Shown here piece by piece: positions 4,014 through 41,010 of a stretch of DNA of 44,285 nt (position 1 is the first letter of the stretch; each line of letters starts with the position of its first letter). The position numbers were made by a program, and so were the translations under genes. A model generated the notes under the pieces. The model did no database searches and was not told the origin of the DNA. It saw nothing but the letters and a program-made list of their open reading frames with translations. This DNA comes from a plasmid: sequence record NZ_CP044414.1; one strand, given 5' to 3'.

Positions 4014-4489
4014 TATCAATGAAGCCAGTCATCGTTTAAATTTATTTATTTTACAGCAAATCGATGATGCTAGTTCAATAGACCAATTAATAAAAATCTT
4101 TAAAACTTATTAAGCCAGACTGATTCAGGTGCCGAAAATAAAACGCAGATACCCGGAGGAATGGAAAATAGTGATATAACTTTTAAAACATTTTATAGAT
4201 ACAGAAAGCACAAAAGAACCTGAACATGATCTAAAAAAGCGATTAGCCCAGGAACTTAATAAGGGCGTATCAAGACTTGCAACAAAAAGTTCAACAAGCG
4301 ACTGATCCACAACAAAAATCAGAACTAAAAAACCAGTTACATGAGGTGCACCTAGAAATCAGTAAACGAACGCAAAAGCAGTTGCAAGGATTTTGCTAAA
4401 CAAAATCCCAAGATCAAACAACCCGATCCTGAACCTGATCAAAGTCTGAAACGGTAGCCAGTTTGGTTAAGTCATGCTATAATGTAGGT

Positions 4490-4610
4490 AGGAAAAAGGA
4501 AGTCCCGAGTGAACAGGACTTCCCATGTAGAGCCGTTAAAGACGGTGGCAGATTTTAACGACATTTAATAACCGCTAGCTTGCCAGAGCTAAGGCGGTTA
4601 TTTTTTTTGC
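4490..4610 (+). ncRNA. candidate antitoxin sRNA convergent with the Fst-like toxin gene
   Basis: Extended -10 TGcTATAAT at 4475..4483. 5' hairpin ggaagtcc...ggacttcc. Core motif gtagagccgttaaagacgg. Shared terminator stem ataaccgc/gcggttat followed by T8. Confidence 0.4.
4572..4608. terminator. bidirectional intrinsic terminator shared by the convergent sRNA and toxin genes
   Basis: Stem ataaccgc...gcggttat flanked by A-run and T8. The toxin stop codon lies inside the stem. Confidence 0.6.
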
Positions 4611-4702
4611 TGACTTTTGATCAGCTCAACACTTAATGCGATTAAGGCCACGATAAAGGTACCGAAAGCCAGCATTAATTGTAAAGCGTCCGACACGGAC
4701 AC
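4598..4702 (-). CDS. Fst/Ldr-like type I toxin (34 aa, single TM helix plus charged tail)
   Basis: VSVSDALQLMLAFGTFIVALIALSVELIKSQQKK. GTG start 8 nt after AAAGGAG. Not in the ORF track because of its size. Confidence 0.5.
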   Translation of the reverse strand: MSVSDALQLMLAFGTFIVALIALSVELIKSQQKK

Positions 4703-4818
4703 TTAGGCTACTCCTTTCGTTAGGATTTATGGGCTTTAAGGTTTAACACCATAAGCACCACCTTCTTCCAGTTTCGCCACCGCCTTAACTTCTCTACTTA
4801 ATCCATTATACAGAAAAA
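4703..4818. repeat. 116-bp toxin leader and promoter repeat (second copy at 40895..41010)
   Basis: About 70 bp are identical (accaccttcttccagtttcgccaccgccttaacttctctacttaatccattatacagaaaaatt). A TATAAT sits on the minus strand. Confidence 0.7.
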
Positions 4819-4982
4819 TTAAGGGTCTACCAAGTTTAGTAAAAGACAGAAATAGTGCTTATAAAACAAATCCTTTGAAGCAAAAAAATGTCCACTAGAG
4901 TATACCCTATTGGCCTTTTTTATTTCTGTGCTATACTAGGAATTACAAATGTTCATTAGAACTGTCCAAAAGGAGAATTAGA

Positions 4983-5570
4983 ATGGCTAAAATCGGTTAT
5001 GCGCGTGTGAGTTCCAAGGAGCAACATTTAGATCGACAGTTAGCGGCTTTAAAAGACGTTGATAAATTATTTACGGATAAATTAAGTGGGGCAAACACTA
5101 ATCGGCCAGAACTGCAAAAAATGCTGGCCTATATTCGTGAGGGTGATATTGTCCTGGTCACTGAATTAGATCGCTTAGGCAGAAACAACCAGGATTTAAC
5201 TAAGATCATGAACACCATTCAAAATAAGGGGGCCACCTTAGATGTGTTAAATTTGCCGTCCATGACAGGGATTGCTGACCCAAATTTACGTCAACTGATG
5301 ACCAACTTGATTATTGAACTCTATAAGTACCAGGCCGAAAGTGAACGTAAGCGAATCATTGAGCGCCAGCAGCAAGGAATTACCTTAGCTAAGCGGCAGG
5401 GTAAATATCATGGACGCAAACCCCAATACACCCAAGACGATCCCCGCTTACAACACGCTTTTAAACTTTATCAGGCAGGCATGAGTGACATTGATGTGGC
5501 TCGAAATACCGGGATTAAACGGACGACCTTTATTCGATACCGTGTGAAATACGGTATTAAAAGAAAATAG
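4983..5570 (+). CDS. serine recombinase (resolvase/invertase family)
   Basis: MAKIGYARVSSKEQHLDRQ with catalytic Ser context. A C-terminal HTH is present. Confidence 0.85.
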   Translation: MAKIGYARVSSKEQHLDRQLAALKDVDKLFTDKLSGANTNRPELQKMLAYIREGDIVLVTELDRLGRNNQDLTKIMNTIQNKGATLDVLNLPSMTGIADPNLRQLMTNLIIELYKYQAESERKRIIERQQQGITLAKRQGKYHGRKPQYTQDDPRLQHAFKLYQAGMSDIDVARNTGIKRTTFIRYRVKYGIKRK

Positions 5571-5918
5571 GGACCCTATTTTTCTTTACTTATAGTTTTG
5601 GAGGTTGTTTACTAAAGTTTTTTTCTTGGAATCTGATTCCGTGTTTATTAAACTATTCGACGAGATGTCATACAAGAATGACACCCTGACTGTGTATACA
5701 TCATGATCATTTTTCATTTACCCACTTTTTTATTTTATTTAAGAAAAAATGATTAATGTTAAACTTTTTAACAATCTTTTAAATGAATCCATGGTTGTTA
5801 TTGGCTGGTCAATTACTGTAGTAATTGGCTTTTTTTATAAATGTTTTACTTTAATTTCAGGCAGATTGTAAAATTAATCCGAACGCTGTTCGGACAAAAA
5901 AGATCAGCTTCCTTTAAA

Positions 5919-6191
5919 ATGTGTTTACCACAAACCCATCTTTTAGGAGCTGATCTTTTGTCTAGTATAACCTATTTCGAACGAATTAAAATCGAAACCT
6001 TTTGTGAACTAGGGCTGTCCAATATCCAAATGGGCGTTCGGCTGAACCGATCACCGTCAACAATTTCTTATGAATTATCTCGATGTCAACCTTATCAGGC
6101 TGAATTAGCACAAAACAGATGCCGAATACAAGCGATCACGATGTGGGTAAGTGTCAATATTTTTGCGGTAGTCCAAAAACCATTAGTCTGA
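5919..6191 (+). pseudogene. IS30-family transposase N-terminal HTH fragment
   Basis: ERIKIETFCELGLSNIQMGVRLNRSPSTISYELSR is an IS30 HTH. It is truncated with no DDE domain. Confidence 0.55.
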
Positions 6192-6239: not shown

Positions 6240-6597
6240 CTAAATAGCTTCCCCCGGCAACCTCTGCTGTTAGTGCTCCGTGTTGAATGCCGACATGAAT
6301 TTCATGGCGACGCTTCAAGCTGCGGCCAAAGAATTGGCAGTAGATAAAATTACTGTTAATGCTTATAATCCAGGAATTGTTCGCACAAAAATGCGAGATG
6401 CAATTGATAAAAAATTGCAAAAATTAAACATGAAACAATAACGCAGCAACAAGCAAATTGTCTCAAAGGAGATAGCGCTTGGTCGTGAAGCAAAACCTAG
6501 CGATGTAGCTGAAGTTGTGGCTTGGTTTGCTTCATCAGATGCTGGGTATGTTACTGGACAATCACTTCAAGTTGATGGTGGAATGAGATTTCATTAA
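6240..6597 (+). pseudogene. short-chain dehydrogenase/reductase C-terminal fragment, frameshifted
   Basis: [25 protein letters not shown]... then, in another frame, VAWFASSDAGYVTGQSLQVDGGM. Confidence 0.55.
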
Positions 6598-6627
6598 AAA
6601 AATATTTAGAATAAATAATCTCTAATA

Positions 6628-6668
6628 ACAATAAAAAATAGTTATTAGAGATTTTTTTGTCAAAAAAG
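6628..6668 (+). terminator. intrinsic terminator
   Basis: atctctaataac...gttattagagat followed by a T-run. Confidence 0.6.
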
Positions 6669-6862
6669 CAAAAAACAACACCTACATTATTTTTGGAAGA
6701 TAAAATAAATTTGAAAATAATTTTGTATTATCAAAACGGCTTAGCCACAATATATTGATTATAAATAACCAAAAAATCCACATGTTGTATTATTGAGCAG
6801 AAGATGCTATATTATGTTCACACAAATATTAGATAAAACAATAAATAATGATAGGAGCAAAT

Positions 6863-7870
6863 ATGAGTTATTATAATCATTCACAGTCACCAGTTGAATT
6901 TGCTTACAATAACAACGGCAAAAATATGCGAGCTATTAACTGGAATGACATTAAAGATGATAAGGATCTTGAGGTTTGGAACAGAGTTACTCAAAACTTT
7001 TGGTTACCTGAAAAAATCCCAGTTTCGAATGATATAAGTTCTTGGAATCAATTATCTGATGACTGGCAACAGCTTATAACTCGCACTTTCACTGGATTGA
7101 CTTTATTAGATACAACTCAATCAAGTGTGGGTGATGTAGCCCAAATTAAAAATTCACAAACTGATATAGAGCAAGCTATCTATGCAAATTTTGCTTTTAT
7201 GGTTGCTGTCCATGCAAGATCATATGGAACTATTTTTTCTACTTTATGTACTAGTGAACAAATTGAAGAAGCGCATGAATGGGTAGTTAATAATGATGCT
7301 TTACAAGCAAGAGCTAAAGCGGTAATTCCGTATTATACAGGCAATGATCCGCTTAAATCAAAGGTTGCCGCAGCAATTATGCCAGGGTTCCTGCTCTATG
7401 GTGGTTTTTATTTACCATTTTATTTAGCTGCAAGAGGTAAATTGCCTAATACTGCTGATATTATTAGATTGATCTTAAGAGATAAGGTTATTCACAATTA
7501 TTATAGTGGTTACAAATATCAATTGGCCGTAAAGAAATTAGCTCCAGCTAAACAAGCAGAAATGAAAAAATTCGTTTTTGATTTCTTAGATAAACTAATT
7601 GATTTGGAAAAGAAATATTTGCACGAGCTTTATGATGATTTTGATTTGGTTGATGATGCAATTCATTTCAGTTTGTATAATGCAGGTAAATTTTTACAAA
7701 ATTTAGGCTATGATTCTCCTTTTACCGCAGAAGAAACTTATATTTCCCCAGAAGTATTCGCTCAATTATCAGCTCAAGCTGATGAAAACCATGATTTCTT
7801 TTCTGGTAATGGTTCTTCATATGTAATGGGAACAGGAGAGGAGACTAAAGATGATGACTGGGATTTCTAA
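6863..7870 (+). CDS. nrdF: ribonucleotide reductase beta subunit NrdF, class Ie-type (Val/Pro/Lys at three metal-ligand Glu positions)
   Basis: [20 protein letters not shown] (V where Glu is expected; His and Tyr retained). [14 protein letters not shown] (P for Glu). [11 protein letters not shown] (K for Glu; His retained). C-terminal DDDWDF tail. Confidence 0.9.
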
Positions 7871-8276
7871 AAAGCCATTAGTTGTCTATTATTCTTCCAC
7901 TTCAAATAATACAGCACGCTTTGTAGAAAAGTTAGATTGTAATTCTATTAGGATTCCTATTAAACTCAGTAAAGAAATTTCAGTTTCTGAAGAATATATT
8001 TTAATTACGCCAACTTATTCTGGTGGCCATGGGACTACAGGTGCTGTGCCTGAGCAAGTTATCCACTTTTTGAACAAATTGGCTAATCGGCAAAAATGTA
8101 TTGGTGTTATTGCTAGTGGAAATACCAATTTTGGTAATTCTTTTGCCTTGGCAGGGGATGTAATTTCTAAGAAATTACATGTTCCTTATCTATATAAATT
8201 TGAGTTACTGGGAACAACTGAAGATGTAAATAATGTTAATAAAATAATTGCTGATGCAGGTGAAGACAATGACTGA
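7851..8276 (+). CDS. nrdI: flavodoxin-like NrdI
   Basis: [21 protein letters not shown]...ITPTYSGG. It overlaps the nrdF end and the nrdE start. Confidence 0.85.
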
Positions 8277-10437
8277 TAATCTTAATAATGATTCATATAT
8301 TTCTTTAAATGCACTTGCTAAATTTAAAGATGAAAAAGGAAATTATAATTTTAAAGCTGACAAGGAAGCTACTAAGCAATATCTTGAAAATCATATTGAA
8401 CCAAGAATGAAAAAGTTTGCTTCTTTAGAAGAAAAATTAGCTTATTTAGTTGATAATAATTACTATGATAAAAAAGTTCTAGATTTATATACAGCTAAAT
8501 TTATTAAAGAAATTTTCAAATTAGCTTATGCACAAAATTTTAGCTTTTTGAACTTTATGGGTGCAGCTAAATTCTATAAAGCATATGCCTTAAAAACAAA
8601 CGATAATAAACAATTTTTAGAACGTTTTGAAGATCGGGCTGTTATGAATGCTTTATTTTTAGCTGATGGCAATGAGGAACTGGCCTTGAATTTAGTTAAA
8701 GATATTATTAGTAATCGTTTCCAGCCAGCAACTCCGACTTTCTTGAATGCAGGTAAGAAGAGACGCGGTGAATATATTTCATGTTATTTGCTCAGAGTTG
8801 AAGACAATATGGAATCAATTTCACGAGCAATAAGCACAAGTCTGCAATTATCTAAACGTGGTGGTGGTGTTGCTCTATGCTTAACTAATTTGCGTGAATT
8901 AGGTGCACCTATTAAAAAAATGAAGAATTTATCTAGTGGGATAATTCCTGTAATGAAATTACTAGAAGATTCATTTTCTTATGCCAATCAATTAGGGCAA
9001 AGACAAGGTGCCGGTGCAGTTTATTTAAGTGCCCATCATCCTCAGATTATGCAATTTTTAGATACTAAACGAGAAAACGCTGACGAAAAGGTAAGAATTA
9101 AATCTTTATCACTTGGCGTAGTGATTCCAGATATTACTTTTGAACTAGCCAAAGAAAATAAAAAGATGGCTTTGTTTTCACCATATGATATTAAACGTGA
9201 ATATGGTAAACCAATGTCAGATATTTCAATTACTAAAGAATACCAAAATCTCCTTAATAATCCATGTATTAAAAAGACATTTATCAGTGCTAGAAAATTC
9301 TTCCAAACTATTGCTGAAGTTCAATTTGAATCAGGGTATCCTTATATTATGTATGAAGATACTGTCAATCGAAGAAACCCACAAAAGAAATTGGGGCGGA
9401 TCGTGATGTCTAATTTATGTTCAGAAATTGCTCAGGTTAATACGCCAAGTACCTATAATGAAGACTTAAGTTTTAATAAGACGGGCTACGATGTTTGTTG
9501 TAATTTAGGATCACTTAATATTGCAGCAGCAATGAATAGCGCTGACAAGTTAGGTGGTTTGGTTTCTGATAGTGTTCAAGCGCTTAATCGTGTTGCCAGG
9601 TCTTCAGATTTAGATTGTGCTCCTTCAATTGAAAAGGGAAATAAAGCTAATCGAGCAATCGGTCTAGGAGCAATGAATTTACATGGCTTTTTAGCAACTA
9701 ATCATATTTATTATGATTCACCAGAAGCAGTTGAATTTACAGGAATTTTCTTTTATACAATTACATACCATGCATTTAAAGAATCAAATAAATTAGCTGA
9801 AAAGTATGGTGCTTTTAAAGGATTCAAAGATTCATCATATGCTAGTGGTGATTATTTCAAAAAATTTATTGATGAGGAAGTTTCACCGAAAACAGACAAG
9901 ATTAAAGAAATTGTAGCTAAATATAAATTAGTTATTCCAACTAAAGAAGATTGGGAAGAATTGATTACTAAAATTAAAAAGACAGGTATAGCTAATGCTA
10001 ACTTGTTAGCAGTTGCACCTACTGGATCAATTAGTTATTTATCTTCATGTACACCAAGTTTGCAGCCAGTAGTAGCTCCTGTTGAAACACGCAAAGAGGC
10101 TGATTTGGGTCGAATTTATGTACCAGCTTATAAGATTAATAAAGACAATTATGAGTATTACGAAAAGGGTGCATATGAAGTAGGACCTAATGCTATTATT
10201 GATATTACAGCTGCTGCACAAAAGTATGTTGATCAATCAATTTCGTTAACTTTATTTGTTGAAGATAATGCAACAACAAGAGATTTAAATAAGGCTTATA
10301 TTTATGCCTTTAAAAAGCGATGCAACTCAATTTATTATGTTAGAATAAGAGAAAAAGTTTTAGCTGGTAGTGAGAACTTGACTGCAGACGAATGTTTAAT
10401 TCAAAATGGTGCAGAATGCCAGAAATGTATGATTTAG
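8268..10437 (+). CDS. nrdE: ribonucleotide reductase alpha subunit NrdE
   Basis: [24 protein letters not shown] and a C-terminal CxxC tail. ATG 8268 follows GGTGA. Confidence 0.9.
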
Positions 10438-10474
10438 TTTAATAATAGAAAAGCAGCTAAAGTGTTTATTGATA

Positions 10475-19640: not shown

Positions 19641-21212
19641 GTGTCTTTTAAAGATCTATATGCTGTTAATAGAATAAGAATGATATCGCTATTAGTTCTA
19701 GAATTCCTAACTTCTGGTTTGATAATTGGGGTCAGCTATATTAATACATATCAAATAACGGCTATTAAAGACCGCAAATGGCAACAATTTATTTTCTTGA
19801 TTACTCTATCTTTGATTTTGTTCATTATAAGCTATGCTGGTCTTAATGTTTGTCAGTATTGGATAGAAAAACAAATTCAACAATATAATCATCAAATAAG
19901 ATTTAAAATAGTAGATCATTATTTTTACGATAATAAACCGCATAATGCTGCCCAAGTTCAGAATCGGCTAACTAACGACCTGAACTTAATAAAGGATTCA
20001 AAACTTGCAGTATATACGGATATTCCATATTATTTAGCTCAAATTATCTTTGCATCAATTGGTTTGTTGCTGTTTCATTGGAGCCTATTAATTGTCGTTT
20101 TGATATTGGGAACACTCAGTTTTTATTTACCTAAACTTCTTCGTCCTGCCATGCAAGCAGCTGCTCTAAAGTTATCTCAAGCAAATAAGCAATATTTAGA
20201 TACAGCTGAAAAATGGTTAGATGGCCTATCGGAACTTAAAAAATTTTCAGTGGGTTCACAGTTGTCTAAGATTATGGATCATGCATCTGATACATTAGAA
20301 AGTGCAAATATAGCAAGAAGAGGTACTATGCAAGGCTTAGCTGTATTGAATAAGGCTACCTCAGCGTTGTTACAATTTGTTTTATTAGCCGTTACGGCCA
20401 TATTAGTTACAAACCATATTGTTGTATTTGGTGTAATAGTAACTGTTGAAAGCTTTAGCTCTTATATCAATGTATCAGTTAAGATGCTTGCAACTGAATT
20501 AGGACAGATTCACTCAGTAGATCGTTTAAGCAGGGAAGTTAATGCGGACACAGCTGTAATTGAGCATACGGGCGACTTACAATCTCCAGCTAGTTTAACT
20601 ACAAAAAACGTGTCAGTAAAATTTTCTAACGGGAAAATAATAAAATTTCCTAATTTAAATATAAAAACTGGTGAGAAAATTTTGTTGACTGGTGACTCAG
20701 GATCCGGAAAAACTACTTTATTTAAAGTACTTCTTGGTAAGATTAAACTTCATACCGGTATGATCAATTTTAAAAATAAATATGGTGACGATATTAACAT
20801 CGATAAGGCTAAGATAGGATATATCCCACAAGATCCGATTTTATTTCCTGATAGTATCGAAAATAATATTACAATGTTTAATTCAAAATTGAAAAATAAA
20901 GTGCTAGATTATGTTAAAAACGTTTCTTTTGAATCTGATATTAGAAAAATGTCGCTAGGTCTAAAGACAGAATTAAATTTGCAAAAATTAAATATTTCTG
21001 GAGGTCAACGACAAAAAATTGTGTTAGCTCGGGCTTGCATTCACGATGATGATTTTATTTTGATTGATGAGGGCACTAGTGCTATAGATAAAAAAGCAAC
21101 GCTTGAAATCTTAAAGAAGTTATTAGATGGCCCATACACTGTGATTTTTATAGCTCATAATTTTAATGAAGAAATGTACAGTCTCTTTGATAGAGAGATA
21201 CACTTAACTTAG
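19641..21212 (+). CDS. ABC exporter, fused permease and ATPase (half-transporter 2)
   Basis: GTG start after AGAGGTGAG. GDSGSGKTT, ISGGQRQK, ILIDE. Confidence 0.8.
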   Translation: MSFKDLYAVNRIRMISLLVLEFLTSGLIIGVSYINTYQITAIKDRKWQQFIFLITLSLILFIISYAGLNVCQYWIEKQIQQYNHQIRFKIVDHYFYDNKPHNAAQVQNRLTNDLNLIKDSKLAVYTDIPYYLAQIIFASIGLLLFHWSLLIVVLILGTLSFYLPKLLRPAMQAAALKLSQANKQYLDTAEKWLDGLSELKKFSVGSQLSKIMDHASDTLESANIARRGTMQGLAVLNKATSALLQFVLLAVTAILVTNHIVVFGVIVTVESFSSYINVSVKMLATELGQIHSVDRLSREVNADTAVIEHTGDLQSPASLTTKNVSVKFSNGKIIKFPNLNIKTGEKILLTGDSGSGKTTLFKVLLGKIKLHTGMINFKNKYGDDINIDKAKIGYIPQDPILFPDSIENNITMFNSKLKNKVLDYVKNVSFESDIRKMSLGLKTELNLQKLNISGGQRQKIVLARACIHDDDFILIDEGTSAIDKKATLEILKKLLDGPYTVIFIAHNFNEEMYSLFDREIHLT

Positions 21213-25346: not shown

Positions 25347-25498
25347 CACATGCTGGTGAAACTACAAAGCCGATCACGACCAATGTTCACTTTGTAATTC
25401 TATTAAAGCATATCAGATTTGTATTTTAAAGCAAGTCAGATGTTTTAGCAACTCTCTTTTGAGACAGCATGTGTCAGTCAAGAAAGGGAGTTTTTATT

Positions 25499-26602
25499 AT
25501 GACAAAATCAACAAATTTTAATTACTATGAAGCCGATAACGTATATGGAGCCTTATTTTTCCAGTTTCCTAAGGTATTAATGTATGGCGAGCAATACAAG
25601 CATTTAAGCAGTGACGCTAAATTGGCTTATATGGTACTGAAAGATCGGCTCGAGTATTCTTTGCGCAACAATTGGGTTGATGAAAAAGGACACGTCTACT
25701 TTATTTTTACCGTTAAAGAACTACAAGACTTATTTAATTGCGCTACTGAAAAAGCCGTTAAAATCAAAAAAGAATTGCAAACAGCCAATCTATTAAAACA
25801 AATTCAAATGGGATTTAATCCTAAAACGAAAAAGAATGAACCAAATCGTCTATACCTTTCTAAACTCGATGTGAAAGCTACTGATGTCTATTTAAGGGGC
25901 GAATATGGGCAAAAAGAGCCTGAAACCCTTGCTACGAGCGGAATTTCGAAAATCGAAAGTCCGCATGACTTCGTTGAAACCCTTGCTACGAGCGGAATTT
26001 CGAAAATCGAAAGTCCGCATGACTTCGTTGACGACAATCCTCAAACCCTTGCTACGAGCGGAATTTCGAAAATCGAAAGCAATCTATATAAAGACTATAA
26101 AAATAATATAGATACTAATAGATACGATATAGATACTCAAAAGTTGGACTTTTCCACAGCCAATTTTTCACCAGCTGAAATTGAAGCCCAAAATCGGGAT
26201 TTAGTAAAACATGCTGATGAGTTCTTAACTGACGAAGATAATGGTTTGCCGGTCTTCTTAGAACCAGAAGCAGTGCAACTACTTAGCTTTTGGTGCCGTA
26301 CCCCACAACAAATGCGGCGCTTTATTGGCATTATCTTAAACGCCAAATATGCTGTTGAAAAAGAACATAAGGATTTAGGCGTATGGATTCTATTAGACGA
26401 TCCTGATTTAAAAAAAATGATGACCAAAACATTAAGACGCTATTTTAATGCCCTAAGAAGCGATGAGAAACATATCAAGAATGTTGAGAACTACCTGTAC
26501 GGCACCATGCAAAACCTATTTGATGTTTGGTGGAACCAACAAGCGGCTAGAGACTATGCGGCCAAAGACCAAAATATTGATAACGAGCATACTTGGGATT
26601 AA
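25499..26602 (+). CDS. repA: RepA_N-family theta-replication initiator
   Basis: YYEADNVYGALFFQFPKVLMYGEQYKHLSSDAKLAYMVLKDRLEYSLRNNWVDEKGHVYFIFTVKEL. RBS AAGAAAGGGAG. Confidence 0.8.
   Translation: MTKSTNFNYYEADNVYGALFFQFPKVLMYGEQYKHLSSDAKLAYMVLKDRLEYSLRNNWVDEKGHVYFIFTVKELQDLFNCATEKAVKIKKELQTANLLKQIQMGFNPKTKKNEPNRLYLSKLDVKATDVYLRGEYGQKEPETLATSGISKIESPHDFVETLATSGISKIESPHDFVDDNPQTLATSGISKIESNLYKDYKNNIDTNRYDIDTQKLDFSTANFSPAEIEAQNRDLVKHADEFLTDEDNGLPVFLEPEAVQLLSFWCRTPQQMRRFIGIILNAKYAVEKEHKDLGVWILLDDPDLKKMMTKTLRRYFNALRSDEKHIKNVENYLYGTMQNLFDVWWNQQAARDYAAKDQNIDNEHTWD
25922..26080 (+). repeat. 54-bp tandem repeats (2.7 copies) inside repA, candidate in-gene origin iterons
   Basis: gaaacccttgctacgagcggaatttcgaaaatcgaaagtccgcatgacttcgtt twice plus a partial copy, encoding ETLATSGISKIESPHDFV. 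Confidence 0.6.
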
Positions 26603-28300: not shown

Positions 28301-28401
28301 AATAAATTCTATGTTGTGCTAACCCAAAAATCCTGTATTAGAAGTCGCCGATGGCGACAACAAAGTCAAGCCCATAGAATCAAAGCAAAGAGGTGACTAA
28401 C

Positions 28402-30462
28402 ATGGCAATTTTTCATATGAGTTTTAGTAATATTAGTGCTGGTAAAGGCCGGAGCGCAATTGCCAGTGCCGCCTATCGAAGTGGTGAAAAACTATTTGAT
28501 GATAAAGAAGGACGAAGCTATTTTTATGCCCGTTCGGTTATGCCAGAAAGCTTTATATTGACCCCTAAAAATGCGCCAAAATGGGCAAATGACAGGCAGA
28601 AATTATGGAACGAAGTTGAAAAGAAAGACCGTAAGGCTAATTCACGTTATGCAAAAGAATTCAACGTTGCCCTACCAGTTGAATTAACTAATGAGGAACA
28701 AAAGGCTTTAATCACAAAATTTGTACAAGAAACATTTGTCGATAAAGGTATGGTCGCAGATGTCGCAATTCACCGCGACCATGAAGAAAACCCACATGCT
28801 CATGTTATGCTTACCAATCGCCCTTTTAATCCAGATGGAAGTTGGGGATTAAAGTCAAAAACGCAATATGTTTTAGATAAAAATGGCAAACAATTATTAA
28901 CTAAAAATGGTAATCCAAAACAAAGAAAAATCTGGTTAGTAGATTGGGATAAACCGGGAAAAGTTGAAGAATGGCGACATGCTTGGGCAGAAGAAGTAAA
29001 TAGTTTATTTCAAGCTAAAGGTATGCCAGAAAGAATCAGCGAAAAATCGTATGAAGAACAGGGCATAGAAAAGACACCAACCAAGCACGAAGGACACAAC
29101 AGTCAAACCAAAGAAAGAAAAGCATTTAACGAAGCAGTTAAGGAGCAAGACAGAACTAAAAAGCAATATCAAAATAACCAAGAAAAGATTAATAATCAGA
29201 AGCACTTTGACGCTTTAAGTCAGCATTTTTCTTTCAATGAAAAACGGTTAATCAAAGAGTTAAGCCATGAGCTTAGAACTTATGTCAGCTTAGAGAGTTT
29301 AGATGATAAACGCAGAATGTTGTTTAACTGGAAAAACAGCGTTCTTATTAAACATGCGGTTGGGGAAGATATTAGAAAAGAATTGCTAACAATTAACCGT
29401 CAAAGTCAGTCACTAGAAAAGGCAGATAGACTGTTAGAAAAGGTTACTAATCGAGTAATTGAGAGATTATATCCAGAGCTAAAACTTGATGAAATTACAC
29501 CAGCAGAACGGCAAGAATTAATTAAAGAAACCAACAGCGAACAAAAAGTTTTCAAGGGTGAAGAACTACATGATCGTCTATTGATGATTAGAGAAGATTT
29601 GATTAATCGTCAATTATTAACTTTCACCAAGCGCCCTTATATCAGTTGGCAATTATTAAGTAAGCAAGAAACAAGGGATAAGGAAAAGCTAACCCAGATT
29701 TTGAGCAAACATGGTAATTCCCTTGAAGAATTAGAAACAGCAAATAGGGGAGTTCTAGTCAATTACAGTCCAGCTGAGCAAGGACAAATTAAGCAAGCCG
29801 TTAAGGACTTGCGGACAATTAAGGCAGTTAAAGAGATTGTTCAAACACAGTATCAAGCAGTATTGAAACAAGCATTCCCAGATACCCCAATAGATAAAGC
29901 ACCGATTGAGAAACAGGAACAAGTTTATACCGCTTTGATGTACTACAATCCGAGTTTAAAGGCTTGTCAGCTGGAAACGATTAAGGCATGGCAAAAAGAA
30001 CCGCCAGTAGTCTTTACCCATGAAGAGCATGAACAAGGATTAGCTTATTTAACAGGCAAAAAAGCGCTTAATGATTTAACTAATAAGCAACTCCAAAGAG
30101 TAATGAAGTATGACGGTACTAGACAGTTATTCTTAGGGGAATGTGAGAATGACCCAGCCATTAAAGACAGTCGGATTAAGACAGTACGACAAGAGATTGC
30201 CAATGGACAAAATCAAGACGATCAAAAACGACAAAGTCAACTTTCAGACTATGAACCGTTTAACTACAAAGAAGTCACCCCCAGTTACTACCTAGAAACC
30301 GCCTTTAGTGACGCATTATTAGGAATCTTGTACTCAAGAAGCGAAGACCGCAGACGAAGCAAACAAGCCAAAGGTTTACGAGAAACCGAATGGAAAATGA
30401 CGAGAAAACAACGGCAACATCAAACGAGAAACCGGCATGATGATTTTGGCTTACATATGTAG
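28402..30462 (+). CDS. mobA: MobA/MobL-family relaxase
   Basis: [31 protein letters not shown] and the [14 protein letters not shown] three-His motif. Confidence 0.85.
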
Positions 30463-35054: not shown

Positions 35055-35101
35055 ATAAGTAGATGGTTTTGTATACAAAGCGTGTTCTAAGGAGAGGAAA
35101 A

Positions 35102-37861
35102 ATGAAAAGAATTCGAACGTTTCTATCTTTGTTGATAATTGTAGGCGGAATTTTTGCAGCCCCAATTCAAACTATGGCTGCCACTAATATAAATGGGACA
35201 CCATCTGTAGCTAGCAGTCAAAGTAAGGGTGACTTACCTAGCATCGATCAAGCACAAAGTTCCAAATCAAAGTTTGCCAGTTCTGCAAAAACTAATGATA
35301 TTCCACAAAATGTTACGAAAAATGAAAATAAAGTCAGCCAAAAAGCATCCAATGAGCTTGGAAACAATGAAGGTGTGAGAGGCCCATCTTCTAGTATTGA
35401 TATTACTATTAGCAATTCCAAGTTAACCACTAATGTGATTGAAGGAGGTTTTGGCACTACTGAATTTAAATTCGATTTCTCAGTTCCAGATTCAGCCAAA
35501 TCTGGGGATACAACAACTATTTCATTACCGGATCAGTTAGATTTCCAACGATCTCAGAAGTTTAATATTTATGCACCTGATGGCAAAACTGTTGTAGCTA
35601 CAGCAGTTATCGATAAGCCCAGCAAATCACTTGTTCTAACCTACACCGATTACGTTGATTCACATGACTCAATAAGTGGCCATATTGATATGCAAGTAAC
35701 GGCCGCTACAAGTGAAATTAATAAAGAAGAGACCATACCAGCGGAAATCAAGATTAATGGGCACACCGTTACGATTGATAGATCTGGTATAAAACACATA
35801 CCTTCCAAGGGTGATACAGCAACAGACTTTTGGAAGTACGGATATGTTGATTATGACAATAACAAGAATGAAATTATCTATCACGTCAACATTAACGCCT
35901 CTATGCAAAGTGTCAGTAATGTAGTTATCTCTGATAGTTTGGCTTCAGATGGTTTTTCTTATGTGCCCGGAAGTTTTTCTATTTCTAAAGGAAATTGGGA
36001 AAGAAATTCTGAGAACTATTGGACATTGAGCAATCCACAAGATGTGACAAGCCAATATAACATTGATATTAATTCAAGCAATAGTGCTTATACAGTGAAA
36101 TTGGGCAATATATCTGAGGGTTATGCAATTGTCTACCGGGTTAAGTCAAACCATCCATTACTTAATGGCGAACTGGTCGAGAATGATGTTAGCTATAAAT
36201 CTAATAAGAAGGTAATAAACAGTTCTATAAATAGAGTTCTTTACCAAGAGGCTAATGGCAAAGCTAATGGATATAATTATAGTTTAACTATAAATAAAGA
36301 GGATGAATCTGGAGCCCCACTTGCAAATGCTGTTTTTTCTGTTATTCGCAAGTCAACTAATGGGGTTGTTGGAACCATAACTACTGGTCCTGATGGTAAA
36401 GGAACAATTTATGGTCTTCTAAAAGATGATTATATTATACGTGAAACTTCGGCTCCATCGGGATATACATTGGCTAAAGATGTTACTGTTTCAGCTGATA
36501 GTTTTGACTCTAAGGGAGCAACAGCAACGATCACAGATAAGAAAGCTGTTACTACCGTTTCAGGTACAAAGACTTGGAAGGATAATGATGATCAAGACGG
36601 CAAGCGCCCTGATTCAATCAAGGTTAACTTATTAGCTAATGGTAAGGTTGTTCAAAGTAAGACAGTGAAGGCATCAGACAACTGGAAGTACAGCTTCACT
36701 AACTTACCTGAATTTGAAAATGGTAAGAAGATTACCTACACCGTTACTGAAGACCAAGTTAAAGACTATTCAACGACGGTAGACGGGTACAACTTAACTA
36801 ACAGCTATACGCCGGCTAAGACGAGTGTTAGTGTAACTAAAGCATGGAACGACAATAATAACCAAGATGGCAGTCGTCCAAATGAAGTTAAAGTTCAGCT
36901 CTACGCTAATGGTGAAAAGAGTGGTAACGAAGTTACCCTTAATGCGGCCAACAAGTGGACTCACACTTGGACCGAATTAGCTGAAAAATCAAATAAGAAA
37001 ACTGTTCAATACTCAGTTAAAGAAGTTGGTACTGTTAAGGGCTACACTTCATCAGTTAACGGTAAGAATGGTAACTTCATAGTGACTAACACGCATACGC
37101 CAAGCACTACTACCGTTTCAGGTACAAAGACTTGGAAGGATAATGATGATCAAGACGGCAAGCGCCCTGATTCAATCAAGGTTAACTTATTAGCTAATGG
37201 TAAGGTTGTTCAAAGTAAGACAGTGAAGGCATCAGACAACTGGAAGTACAGCTTCACTAACTTACCTGAATTTGAAAATGGTAAGAAGATTACCTACACC
37301 GTTACTGAAGACCAAGTTAAAGACTATTCAACGACGGTAGACGGGTACAACTTAACTAACAGCTATACGCCGGCTAAGACGAGTGTTAGTGTAACTAAAG
37401 CATGGAACGACAATAATAACCAAGATGGCAGTCGTCCAAATGAAGTTAAAGTTCAGCTCTACGCTAATGGTGAAAAGAGTGGTAACGAAGTTACCCTTAA
37501 TGCGGCCAACAAGTGGACTCACACTTGGACCGAATTAGCTGAAAAATCAAATAAGAAAACTGTTCAATACTCAGTTAAAGAAGTTGGTACTGTTAAGGGC
37601 TACACTTCATCAGTTAACGGTAAGAATGGTAACTTCATAGTGACTAACACGCATACGCCAAGCACTCCGAATGTTCCTACAAATAAGACCCCAAACAAGT
37701 CGAGTCGCCACAATAATCCGATCAAAAAGATAGTTCAAAAGATAGTTCAGCTAATTCTGCCACAAACAGGCAGTTCCTCTGAAACGTATCTTATTGCTAT
37801 TGGTGGGGTATTGCTGATTTTGCTGCTCAGTGTCATCCTTCTTAAAAGGAAGAAAAAGTAA
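35102..37861 (+). CDS. LPXTG-anchored surface adhesin with Cna-B-type repeats
   Basis: Signal peptide MKRIRTFLSLLIIVGGIFA. Repeated TKTWKDNDDQDGKRPD modules. C-terminal LPQTG, TM helix and KRKKK. Confidence 0.8.
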   Translation: MKRIRTFLSLLIIVGGIFAAPIQTMAATNINGTPSVASSQSKGDLPSIDQAQSSKSKFASSAKTNDIPQNVTKNENKVSQKASNELGNNEGVRGPSSSIDITISNSKLTTNVIEGGFGTTEFKFDFSVPDSAKSGDTTTISLPDQLDFQRSQKFNIYAPDGKTVVATAVIDKPSKSLVLTYTDYVDSHDSISGHIDMQVTAATSEINKEETIPAEIKINGHTVTIDRSGIKHIPSKGDTATDFWKYGYVDYDNNKNEIIYHVNINASMQSVSNVVISDSLASDGFSYVPGSFSISKGNWERNSENYWTLSNPQDVTSQYNIDINSSNSAYTVKLGNISEGYAIVYRVKSNHPLLNGELVENDVSYKSNKKVINSSINRVLYQEANGKANGYNYSLTINKEDESGAPLANAVFSVIRKSTNGVVGTITTGPDGKGTIYGLLKDDYIIRETSAPSGYTLAKDVTVSADSFDSKGATATITDKKAVTTVSGTKTWKDNDDQDGKRPDSIKVNLLANGKVVQSKTVKASDNWKYSFTNLPEFENGKKITYTVTEDQVKDYSTTVDGYNLTNSYTPAKTSVSVTKAWNDNNNQDGSRPNEVKVQLYANGEKSGNEVTLNAANKWTHTWTELAEKSNKKTVQYSVKEVGTVKGYTSSVNGKNGNFIVTNTHTPSTTTVSGTKTWKDNDDQDGKRPDSIKVNLLANGKVVQSKTVKASDNWKYSFTNLPEFENGKKITYTVTEDQVKDYSTTVDGYNLTNSYTPAKTSVSVTKAWNDNNNQDGSRPNEVKVQLYANGEKSGNEVTLNAANKWTHTWTELAEKSNKKTVQYSVKEVGTVKGYTSSVNGKNGNFIVTNTHTPSTPNVPTNKTPNKSSRHNNPIKKIVQKIVQLILPQTGSSSETYLIAIGGVLLILLLSVILLKRKKK
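36551..37666 (+). repeat. perfect 558-bp tandem duplication inside the adhesin gene
   Basis: Unit starting actaccgtttcaggtacaaagacttgg at 36551 recurs identically from 37109. Confidence 0.85.
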
Positions 37862-38865: not shown

Positions 38866-39193
38866 CGCAAGCTCCTCCGTTAACTATTATGAAGACCAAT
38901 CTTGGAATCACTATTCTTCTAAAAGTCTAATGATCTAAGAGTGAATCGTACTTTTAGTCATATTATATTAAAGATAATACCTTATTTCACCTATGTGATG
39001 ATAGTACCATTTAAAAAGGACTAGCTTAGTCGCATAATCTTTCACCAAGAGATGTGAATTTGGGGTCCATTTTGAGAAATAGCCACTTGAAAATAAAAGC
39101 CCCTCAATCCTACGATTAAGGACTAAGGGGCTATTTTTTTGTTAAAACATATTTTCGCCCGTATTTTGTGGCGGATAATGCTATAATTTAGAC

Positions 39194-39310
39194 AAACAAA
39201 AAGGAAGCTTTGCACTAACAAGGCTTCCCCAGTAGAGCCGTTTAAGACGGTAGCAATTAATTAGTGATTAAATAACTGCTAGCTTGCCAGAGCTAAGGCG
39301 GTTATTTTTA
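39194..39310 (+). ncRNA. second full copy of the sRNA-like element
   Basis: TGcTATAAT at 39179..39187. Hairpin ggaagc...gcttcc. Core agtagagccgtttaagacgg. Terminator ataactgc...gcggttat. Confidence 0.35.
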
Positions 39311-40771: not shown

Positions 40772-40894
40772 ACACCAGGTTAGTATGTTTTTTTGCCGAT
40801 GATTTTTAATCAGCTCAACAACTAAGGCTATTAGATTGATAATCAATGTACCAAACAATAACATTAGCTGTAATGCGTCCGTAATGGACAACAT
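40769..40894 (-). CDS. Fst/Ldr-like type I toxin paralog (41 aa)
   Basis: MLSITDALQLMLLFGTLIINLIALVVELIKNHRQKNILTWC after AAAGGAG. The 5' leader is a repeat of 4703..4818. Confidence 0.45.
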   Translation of the reverse strand: MLSITDALQLMLLFGTLIINLIALVVELIKNHRQKNILTWC

Positions 40895-41010
40895 GGCTAC
40901 TCCTTTCGTTAGGTTTCCGGTTATCTATGATGATTACACCATAGGTACCACCTTCTTCCAGTTTCGCCACCGCCTTAACTTCTCTACTTAATCCATTATA
41001 CAGAAAAATT
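40895..41010. repeat. second copy of the toxin leader/promoter repeat
   Basis: Matches 4703..4818. Confidence 0.7.

Follow-up and report, generated by a model that had tools for sequence, protein, structure and literature searches.

A predicted class Ie (metal-independent type) nrdF-nrdI-nrdE operon carried between insertion sequence remnants on a mobilisable Lactobacillus plasmid

The complete 44,285-bp plasmid of Lactobacillus sp. JM1 (NZ_CP044414.1; this whole stretch of DNA is called the window here) encodes a ribonucleotide reductase (RNR) at positions 6863-10437 of its plus strand. Two questions are raised by this locus. Does its radical-generating subunit NrdF belong to the metal-free class Ie, as a preliminary description of the sequence had proposed, and how does such an operon come to lie on a plasmid between insertion sequence (IS) remnants? 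Our analysis indicates that it is very probably a complete class Ie nrdF-nrdI-nrdE operon of the Val/Pro/Lys (VPK) type, present as IS-bounded cargo on a mobilisable Lactobacillus plasmid.

The assignment is decided at the metal site of NrdF. The window NrdF was aligned with MAFFT to NrdF of E. coli K-12 (MG1655 record) and to the class Ie proteins of Aerococcus urinae (6EBO) and Mesoplasma florum (6GP2), and the alignment contains no internal gaps. Residues are numbered here from the 340-aa open reading frame (ORF) that starts at an in-frame ATG at 6848, which gives the M. florum numbering; five has to be subtracted for the annotated 335-aa protein. In this alignment E98, E158 and E192 of the E. 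coli protein are replaced by Val119 (codon 7202-7204), Pro179 (codon 7382-7384) and Lys213 (codon 7484-7486). E. coli D67, H101 and H195 correspond to Asp88, His122 and His216, and Y105 corresponds to Tyr126 (codon 7223-7225). The canonical six-residue dimetal site of class Ib (one Asp, three Glu and two His) is thus incomplete, with the Asp and the two His remaining. For E. coli NrdF we presume the ligand numbering D67, E98, H101, Y105, E158, E192 and H195 of the 3N37 literature. The match to the class Ie proteins does not depend on this numbering, because the window residues match V116, H119, Y123, P176, K210 and H213 of A. urinae and V119, H122, Y126, P179, K213 and H216 of M. florum column by column. 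The three motifs quoted in the preliminary description all lie in the nrdF ORF (7196-7225, 7376-7411 and 7472-7504). Its claims that Val, Pro and Lys occupy the canonical carboxylate ligand positions, and that the Asp, both His and the radical Tyr are retained, are borne out by the alignment. A displacement of these residues from the ligand positions, which it had named as a reason to abandon the idea, is not seen, with M. florum NrdF included in the comparison.

The window NrdF is 80.5% identical to the A. urinae protein, 76.4% to the M. florum protein and 51.7% to the E. coli protein. Chance is irrelevant as an explanation of this similarity, since phmmer matches the window NrdF to the solved class Ie NrdFs with E 1.6e-190 and 3.4e-180. 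In deep mutational scanning of the A. urinae β subunit, Tyr123, Asp85, Lys210, His119 and Trp49 tolerated none of the sampled substitutions (PMC6176560). All five are identical in the window NrdF (Y126, D88, K213, H122 and W52), and the surface lysine at the NrdI interface is also conserved (K281).

How general is this pattern among relatives? A scan of the GTDB species-representative genomes for NrdF relatives gave 80 loci. Nine checked positions read W-D-V-H-Y-P-K-H-K in all of them except Bifidobacterium bombi (79/80), and the three genes stand in the order F-I-E on one strand in 78. Both the signature and the gene order had been attributed in the preliminary description to the published class Ie family, and this holds: the VPK signature and the nrdFIE order were published for class Ie (bioRxiv 10.1101/348268; PMC6176560), and VPK and Gln/Ser/Lys (QSK) variants are described in PMC11846895, where 24 Lactobacillales species are reported to carry VPK. 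The B. bombi protein, the sole QSK sequence recovered in the scan, is 58% identical to the window NrdF. In the QSK variant, known from Gardnerella/Bifidobacterium vaginale NrdF, the bridging Glu is likewise replaced by Lys and formation of dihydroxyphenylalanine (DOPA) depends on co-expression (PMC11846895). It differs from the window in having Gln and Ser where the window has Val and Pro, and its operon, nrdHIEF, typically includes nrdH. The window sequence reads Val/Pro/Lys and so falls outside this variant.

The nearest distinct relative is the nrdFIE operon of L. iners DSM 13335 (locus L007), with identities of 83% for NrdF, 62% for NrdI and 73% for NrdE. It has the VPK residues, the FIE order and an NrdR-like box upstream in common with the window. 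It differs in being chromosomal (482-kb scaffold) and in the absence of the dehydrogenase remnant found upstream of the window operon, and its DNA is only 73% identical; it is therefore not the direct donor of the plasmid block. In neighbour-joining (NJ) trees of NrdF and NrdE, computed with no bootstrap, the plasmid block is sister to the L. iners operon inside the VPK sequences, with the QSK sequence as outgroup; the VPK clade itself derives from class Ib. The ratio of non-synonymous to synonymous substitution rates (dN/dS) against the L. iners orthologues is 0.07 for nrdF, 0.17 for nrdI and 0.10 for nrdE; because dS is saturated, these values are to be read qualitatively, and in this qualitative sense they point to purifying selection on nrdFIE.

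Beyond Lactobacillus, the nearest NrdFs (75-81% identical) come mostly from taxa of the human urogenital tract, belonging to several phyla: Aerococcus, Dialister micraerophilus, Fannyhessea vaginae, BVAB1, Amygdalobacter, Sneathia, Eggerthellaceae DNF00809 and S. agalactiae (loci L008, L009, L012, L016-L019, L027 and L028). In the NJ tree of NrdF most of these urogenital taxa join Lactobacillus, and the sequences of Sneathia and the streptococci are placed with the Mollicutes or close to them. This distribution suggests a niche-linked horizontal spread.

The operon is complete by ORF listing and NCBIfam matches, with which Pfam agrees, and the ends of its genes overlap (Table 1). The plus-strand ORFs extend over 6848/6863-7870, 7851-8276 and 8248/8269-10437. 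The RefSeq starts on the near-identical plasmid pHL70_1 correspond to 6863 for nrdF and 8269 for nrdE, and its calls for all three genes coincide with those in the table, in agreement with the operon span given in the preliminary description. An AGGAG lies 5 nt ahead of the nrdF ATG at 6863 (6853-6857). The start of nrdI overlaps the 3' end of nrdF by 20 nt and the start of nrdE overlaps the 3' end of nrdI by 8 nt; these overlapping stop/start regions suggest translational coupling of the three genes. Among solved structures, the best relative of the window NrdI is the A. urinae class Ie NrdI (7MMP_E/6EBQ; E 4e-48), and E. coli NrdI ranks behind it. NrdE aligns over its full length with Salmonella NrdE (1PEM; E 3.9e-256) and retains NLCSE (N382/C384/E386), C172, C410/C411, Y689-Y690 and a C-terminal CQKC, which we take to be the catalytic, radical-transfer and re-reduction residues of NrdE.

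Table 1. Positions of the operon, its flanks and the replicon functions in the 44,285-nt window.
Feature	Position	Strand	Evidence and remarks
Serine recombinase (resolvase), intact	4983-5570	+	PF00239 + PF02796
IS30-type transposase, N-terminal fragment (helix-turn-helix, HTH, only)	5841-6191	+	PF13936 alone; 116 aa
Short-chain dehydrogenase pseudogene remnant	6240-6597	+	internal stop codons; PF13561 C-terminal match
Hairpin + T-run	6618-6652, T-run to 6658		downstream of dehydrogenase remnant; read from sequence
Upstream control region, common to all block copies	6727-6862	+	shared homology
nrdF, predicted class Ie (VPK) radical-generating β subunit	6863-7870	+	335 aa; NCBIfam NF010572, 609.7 bits
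nrdI, flavodoxin-like activase	7851-8276	+	141 aa; TIGR00333, E 1.1e-52; PF07972
nrdE, catalytic α subunit	8269-10437	+	722 aa; TIGR04170, E 5e-298
IS3-family element, broken transposase	10469-11902 (start approximate)	+	ORFs 10462-11733 (HTH_28/HTH_21/rve) and 11696-11902 (rve_2)
ParA + DUF5388 protein	12182-13283	-	
RepA	25469-26602
MobA/MobL relaxase	28393-30462

The window operon can be compared with the characterised class Ie systems. The A. urinae RNR (6EBO/6EBP/6EBZ; NrdF-NrdI entries 7MMP-7MMW; Blaesi et al. 2018, PMC6176560) has the same Val/Pro/Lys, the conserved Asp, both His, the DOPA-site Tyr, Trp49, the surface Lys and the gene order β-NrdI-α. Its operon is chromosomal and belongs to a urinary pathogen, whereas the window operon is found on a mobilisable plasmid of a commensal Lactobacillus between IS remnants. 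In the alignment, the A. urinae NrdI loop has a 7-residue insertion that is absent from the window NrdI. The M. florum enzyme (6GP2/6GP3; Srinivas et al. 2018, bioRxiv 10.1101/348268) is likewise encoded by nrdFIE. There, however, the operon, entered as BIA, is the sole RNR operon (PMC11846895 table), whereas in the window it is accessory plasmid cargo. RNR operons on plasmids of lactic acid bacteria are already known from Lactococcus lactis pGdh442 (PMC3019208, table 2) and pLOCK 0919 (PMC4758243). Their nrdEF/nrdI genes are likewise RNR cargo beside transposases in Lactobacillales, but the NrdFs of those plasmids are less than 60% identical to the window protein, typically 37-41% in lactic acid bacteria, and from this distance alone are taken as ordinary class Ib.

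Upstream of the operon, the control region that is common to all copies contains an NrdR-box-like palindrome, CCACAATATATTGATT, at 6745-6760. It overlaps a -10-like TATATT (6751-6756) and has three mismatches to the NrdR-box consensus acaCwAtATaTwGtg (PMC4009431). In an NrdR regulon such boxes stand in tandem in the promoter, an integral number of helical turns apart. In the relatives, the density of boxes with at most three mismatches is 1.59 per kb in the 300 nt ahead of nrdF and 0.035 per kb elsewhere in the loci, an approximately 45-fold difference, and they are often paired, 31-32 bp apart. Because of this enrichment upstream of nrdFIE in relatives we keep the single window box as a putative site, at which repression by a chromosomal NrdR would be likely. 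The Mollicutes differ in this respect, since an NrdR-box-like site is found upstream in none of the nine listed loci of Mesoplasma, Spiroplasma and Ureaplasma, whereas many non-Mollicute relatives have one. An Rfam scan of the operon and its upstream region found no RNA element.

That the operon is plasmid-borne, as had been described, is confirmed by the RepA, MobA/MobL and ParA proteins encoded in the window and by matches to L. gasseri plasmids. The operon region is about 100% identical, and much of window 4466-25000 at least 99.6% identical, to such plasmids; the remainder of the window is a patchwork of segments known from other plasmids of Lactobacillaceae. Toxin-antitoxin genes are also present. 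In the coding regions, N5D of NrdF is the sole amino-acid difference between the window and pHL70_1, and NrdI and NrdE are identical. The N5 allele is recorded only from Lactobacillus sp. JM1, D5 being the common one, and the exact window NrdF sequence had no match in the assembly index. Within 6500-10600 the first difference from pHL70_1 is found at position 6638, where an A-run in the loop of the upstream hairpin differs in length by one base. Compared with pHL20_1, there are 7 synonymous and 3 non-synonymous differences in nrdF and 11 and 10, respectively, in nrdE.

The position between IS remnants is confirmed on both sides of the operon. On the left lies the IS30-type HTH fragment, and the equivalent region of pHL70_1 has an intact IS30-like ISLga1. 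On the right, a frameshifted IS3 element begins 31 nt past the nrdE stop, with a hairpin at its left end (10476-10509), and similarity to the IS3 of an L. helveticus plasmid begins at window position 10469. The resolvase is found upstream of the block in most L. gasseri-type copies (L086-L095). According to the homology boundaries, the dehydrogenase remnant moves with the block from 6315 onward in several species. It is seen only beside Lactobacillus copies, and neither with L. iners nor with other chromosomal nrdFIE; a search for the donor context via the neighbourhood of this remnant identified no donor.

A block of approximately 3.8-4.2 kb with nrdFIE recurs at 98.5-100% identity in 17 PLSDB plasmids, which belong to L. 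gasseri, L. paragasseri and L. crispatus. Further copies, 98.9-99.5% identical, lie on contigs of L. kefiranofaciens, L. kitasatonis and L. helveticus DSM 20075 and of a metagenome-assembled genome (MAG) labelled Pseudogracilibacillus. This last copy (locus L004, DATGTX010000064.1) shows 99% identity on an 11-kb contig; most likely a plasmid contig of Lactobacillus was binned wrongly here, and the block was not transferred to another family. Only the block is common to all copies. The surroundings differ, the backbones range from 13 to 127 kb, and the neighbours are IS30, IS256 or IS3. In pLC2029 (16.7 kb) the block is located between the replication-initiation gene and a recombinase, in pHL20_1 (127 kb) phosphotransferase system (PTS) genes follow downstream, and the plasmid of L. 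paragasseri JV-V03 has an IS256 located 268 bp ahead of nrdF, with the left homology boundary at window position 6727. The boundaries are ragged overall, at 6315, 6648-6662 or 6727 on the left and at 10446-10595 on the right, where those of other species lie at 10446-10468. The exact NrdE sequence is indexed in 1198 blocks of a public assembly collection, mostly contigs of 5-50 kb, and on the long contigs shown with it the same ParA/DUF5388/toxin-antitoxin backbone adjoins. In every copy examined, whether in the window, on other plasmids or on contigs, nrdF, nrdI and nrdE are undisrupted. The mobility of this metal-independent-type RNR, which the preliminary description had only suggested, is thus substantiated by a near-identical block in differing plasmid backbones and species, and by sequence comparison the block appears to have moved recently between them within Lactobacillus.

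Among the 72,556 plasmid records of PLSDB, 348 encode an NrdF homologue. Class Ie-like NrdF is found only in the 17 Lactobacillus records and in two Mesomycoplasma records, and all others are less than 60% identical. The two Mesomycoplasma records, of 844 kb and 268 kb, appear to be whole or fragmentary chromosomes that were entered as plasmids. Class Ie-like NrdF is absent among 50,697 phage records, where all 610 matches are less than 60% identical.

Other interpretations of the locus have to be considered. The gene set NrdE/NrdF/NrdI is that of class Ib, the NrdF passes the cut-offs of NCBIfam class 1b models (NF010572, 609.7 bits; TIGR04171, 423.3 bits), and RefSeq names it accordingly, so that it could be an ordinary dimanganese or diiron class Ib RNR in which the substitutions leave metal binding intact. 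However, three of its four carboxylate ligands are Val, Pro and Lys, its identity to E. coli NrdF is just 51.7%, and the crystals of proteins 76-80% identical to it are metal-free, with the lysine ammonium in metal site 1 (PMC6176560; bioRxiv 10.1101/348268). An ordinary class Ib enzyme is thus extremely improbable. The name arises because the models do not split class Ie from class Ib, and it reflects shared ancestry rather than the cofactor. Still, several observations count against the class Ie operon as we describe it. The genes are called class 1b by RefSeq and NCBIfam in every record that we met. Metal content, DOPA formation, the radical and activity are carried over from the 76-80% identical proteins. 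In the window as a whole NrdR-like boxes are not above chance (2 observed, 1.39 expected), and the upstream region holds no convincing second tandem box, at best a weak half-site. Finally, the native terminator of nrdFIE seems to have been replaced by the IS3 end.

The position of that IS3 end immediately past the nrdE stop, together with the pseudogenes or IS fragments on both flanks, could also mean that the operon is cargo without function, trapped between IS elements and decaying as the adjoining dehydrogenase and transposase pseudogenes are, and the lack of direct evidence of expression would fit this. Decay is contradicted by the three intact ORFs in all copies examined, the retention of the functionally critical residues, the low dN/dS values against L. 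iners and the persistence of the block in many backbones while its surroundings change, and we consider it very unlikely. A somewhat less remote, still unlikely, interpretation is that the block is a composite transposon that moves itself between replicons. IS elements at both ends and the differing backbones would agree with this. The flanking elements, however, belong to unlike and variable families, with an IS30 fragment or IS256 on the left and IS3 or none on the right, and those of the window are defective. Judged by IS family and block boundaries, it is not a composite transposon, which would be bracketed by two copies of one IS element, because the two flanking elements are of different families; the ragged boundaries are better explained by IS insertion and recombination at repeated times than by a single defined transposon. 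An intact class Ie operon, passed on as cargo among plasmids, remains our preferred interpretation.

For this class Ie operon, the genes present, the identity of the residues, the homology, the location on a plasmid and the recurrence in differing contexts are observed. The regulation and the host dependence are inferred, and so is the DOPA chemistry without metal, which is drawn from the closely homologous, characterised enzymes of A. urinae, M. florum and S. pyogenes. Reduced NrdI, with its FMN, would react with O2 to give a reactive oxygen species, most simply superoxide, which would be channelled to the former metal site of NrdF. There Lys213 would take the place of metal 1, and Val119 and Pro179 would remove the other carboxylates. 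Tyr126 would be hydroxylated and oxidised, yielding a stable DOPA radical with no bound metal. In turnover this radical would oxidise Cys384 of NrdE via the conserved proton-coupled electron-transfer path, and NrdE would then reduce ribonucleoside diphosphates. The plasmid ORFs include no NrdH homologue and no second nrd gene, and neither NrdH nor NrdR nor a reductase for NrdI comes from the plasmid. The host chromosome would thus be needed to re-reduce the C-terminal cysteines of NrdE, to reduce NrdI and probably to provide repression by NrdR. In Lactococcus, a YumC-type reductase is a known partner of NrdI (PMC4626851).

The block could even be the sole oxygen-tolerant RNR, with the sole NrdE, of its Lactobacillus hosts, which without it would be left with the oxygen-sensitive class III NrdD and deoxynucleoside salvage. 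We hold this idea tentatively and lean slightly against it. Partial support comes from the published table (PMC11846895, Supplementary Data 1), in which no α subunit beyond the FIE one is entered for L. helveticus DSM 20075 (BIA, I, R, D), L. kefiranofaciens (R, BIA, IB, D) and L. kitasatonis (R, D, BIA, IB), suggesting for these three species that the block encodes the only aerobic RNR. The same table lists an orphan nrdI for L. helveticus and, for L. kefiranofaciens and L. kitasatonis, an extra 'IF' pair (nrdI and a further nrdF) with no second α. With the class Ie block NrdE as the only one in these three genomes, the question arises whether the extra NrdF pairs with it.

What is new here is limited. 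The enzyme class, its signature, the operon order and its horizontal spread are all published, class Ie having been defined in 2018 and represented by several crystal structures. Furthermore, a 2025 survey tabulates L. helveticus, L. iners, L. kefiranofaciens and L. kitasatonis with NrdF2v = 1 and FIE order (PMC11846895, Supplementary Data 1). The L. helveticus, L. kefiranofaciens and L. kitasatonis genomes of that table carry NrdF 99% identical to that of the window and are already entered as VPK class Ie, and in this respect the preliminary description overstated the novelty. Our literature searches found no report on class Ie on Lactobacillus plasmids or on the RNR complement of L. gasseri, L. 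johnsonii or L. crispatus; the plasmid and IS context of a class Ie operon is the part that we did not find described in the searchable literature. The operon is genuine and mobile, yet it is an ordinary representative of an enzyme family already known, and its chemistry is not new.

Other cargo was observed on this plasmid and its sisters. In sister plasmids (loci L086, L089 and L093), an NrtR-type regulator, an isochorismatase-family protein and a nicotinate phosphoribosyltransferase are encoded upstream of the resolvase and nrdFIE. Presumably the isochorismatase-family protein is a PncA-like nicotinamidase, and the group would then be NAD-salvage genes. An energy-coupling factor (ECF)/CbiQ-type transporter adjoins the block in other sister plasmids, and these plasmids seem to collect cargo for nucleotide and cofactor metabolism. 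In the window, the plus-strand cluster at 14481-21212 consists of two ORFs without Pfam match, a ThiF-family adenylyltransferase (16146-17162), a weak YcaO-like match (17159-18037), an ATP-binding cassette (ABC) exporter (18048-19634) and an ORF of similar size (19641-21212). It looks like a biosynthesis and export locus for a ribosomally synthesised and post-translationally modified peptide (RiPP) or of bacteriocin type. It adjoins the parA/toxin-antitoxin backbone in most sister plasmids examined, and is also found on the L. johnsonii FI9785 plasmid NC_013505. Two Rfam matches to the RatA antitoxin RNA on the plus strand (4480-4570, 80.4 bits; 39184-39274, 77.1 bits) each have an rli28-like small RNA match opposite on the minus strand (4636-4819 and 40825-41009). 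Sequence near the RatA matches resembles 'putative holin-like toxin' genes of other Lactobacillaceae plasmids, and the plasmid probably carries two type I toxin-antitoxin modules. In addition, a candidate adhesin is encoded by the plus-strand ORF at 35063-37861, an LPXTG-anchored surface protein of 932 aa in which four Cna-B repeats are combined with Big_8 and SpaA-type domains.

Taken as described, the locus presents an aerobic RNR of the metal-independent type travelling as plasmid cargo, found in PLSDB only on these Lactobacillus plasmids and in none of the phage records. The nearly unchanged block is common to gut, vaginal, urinary and dairy or kefir lactobacilli. The 'class 1b' database label hides metal independence when Lactobacillus genomes are mined for metal needs or oxygen tolerance. 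If the block is indeed the sole aerobic RNR of its hosts, a mobilisable plasmid would decide whether its human-associated hosts can synthesise DNA precursors in air, and would do this with no need for iron or manganese, and the spread of an at least 98.5% identical block across six Lactobacillus species would reflect recent selection for that trait. Growth in oxygenated mucosal niches where metals are restricted would then have a plasmid-borne determinant in this block, of relevance to colonisation by L. crispatus and L. gasseri.

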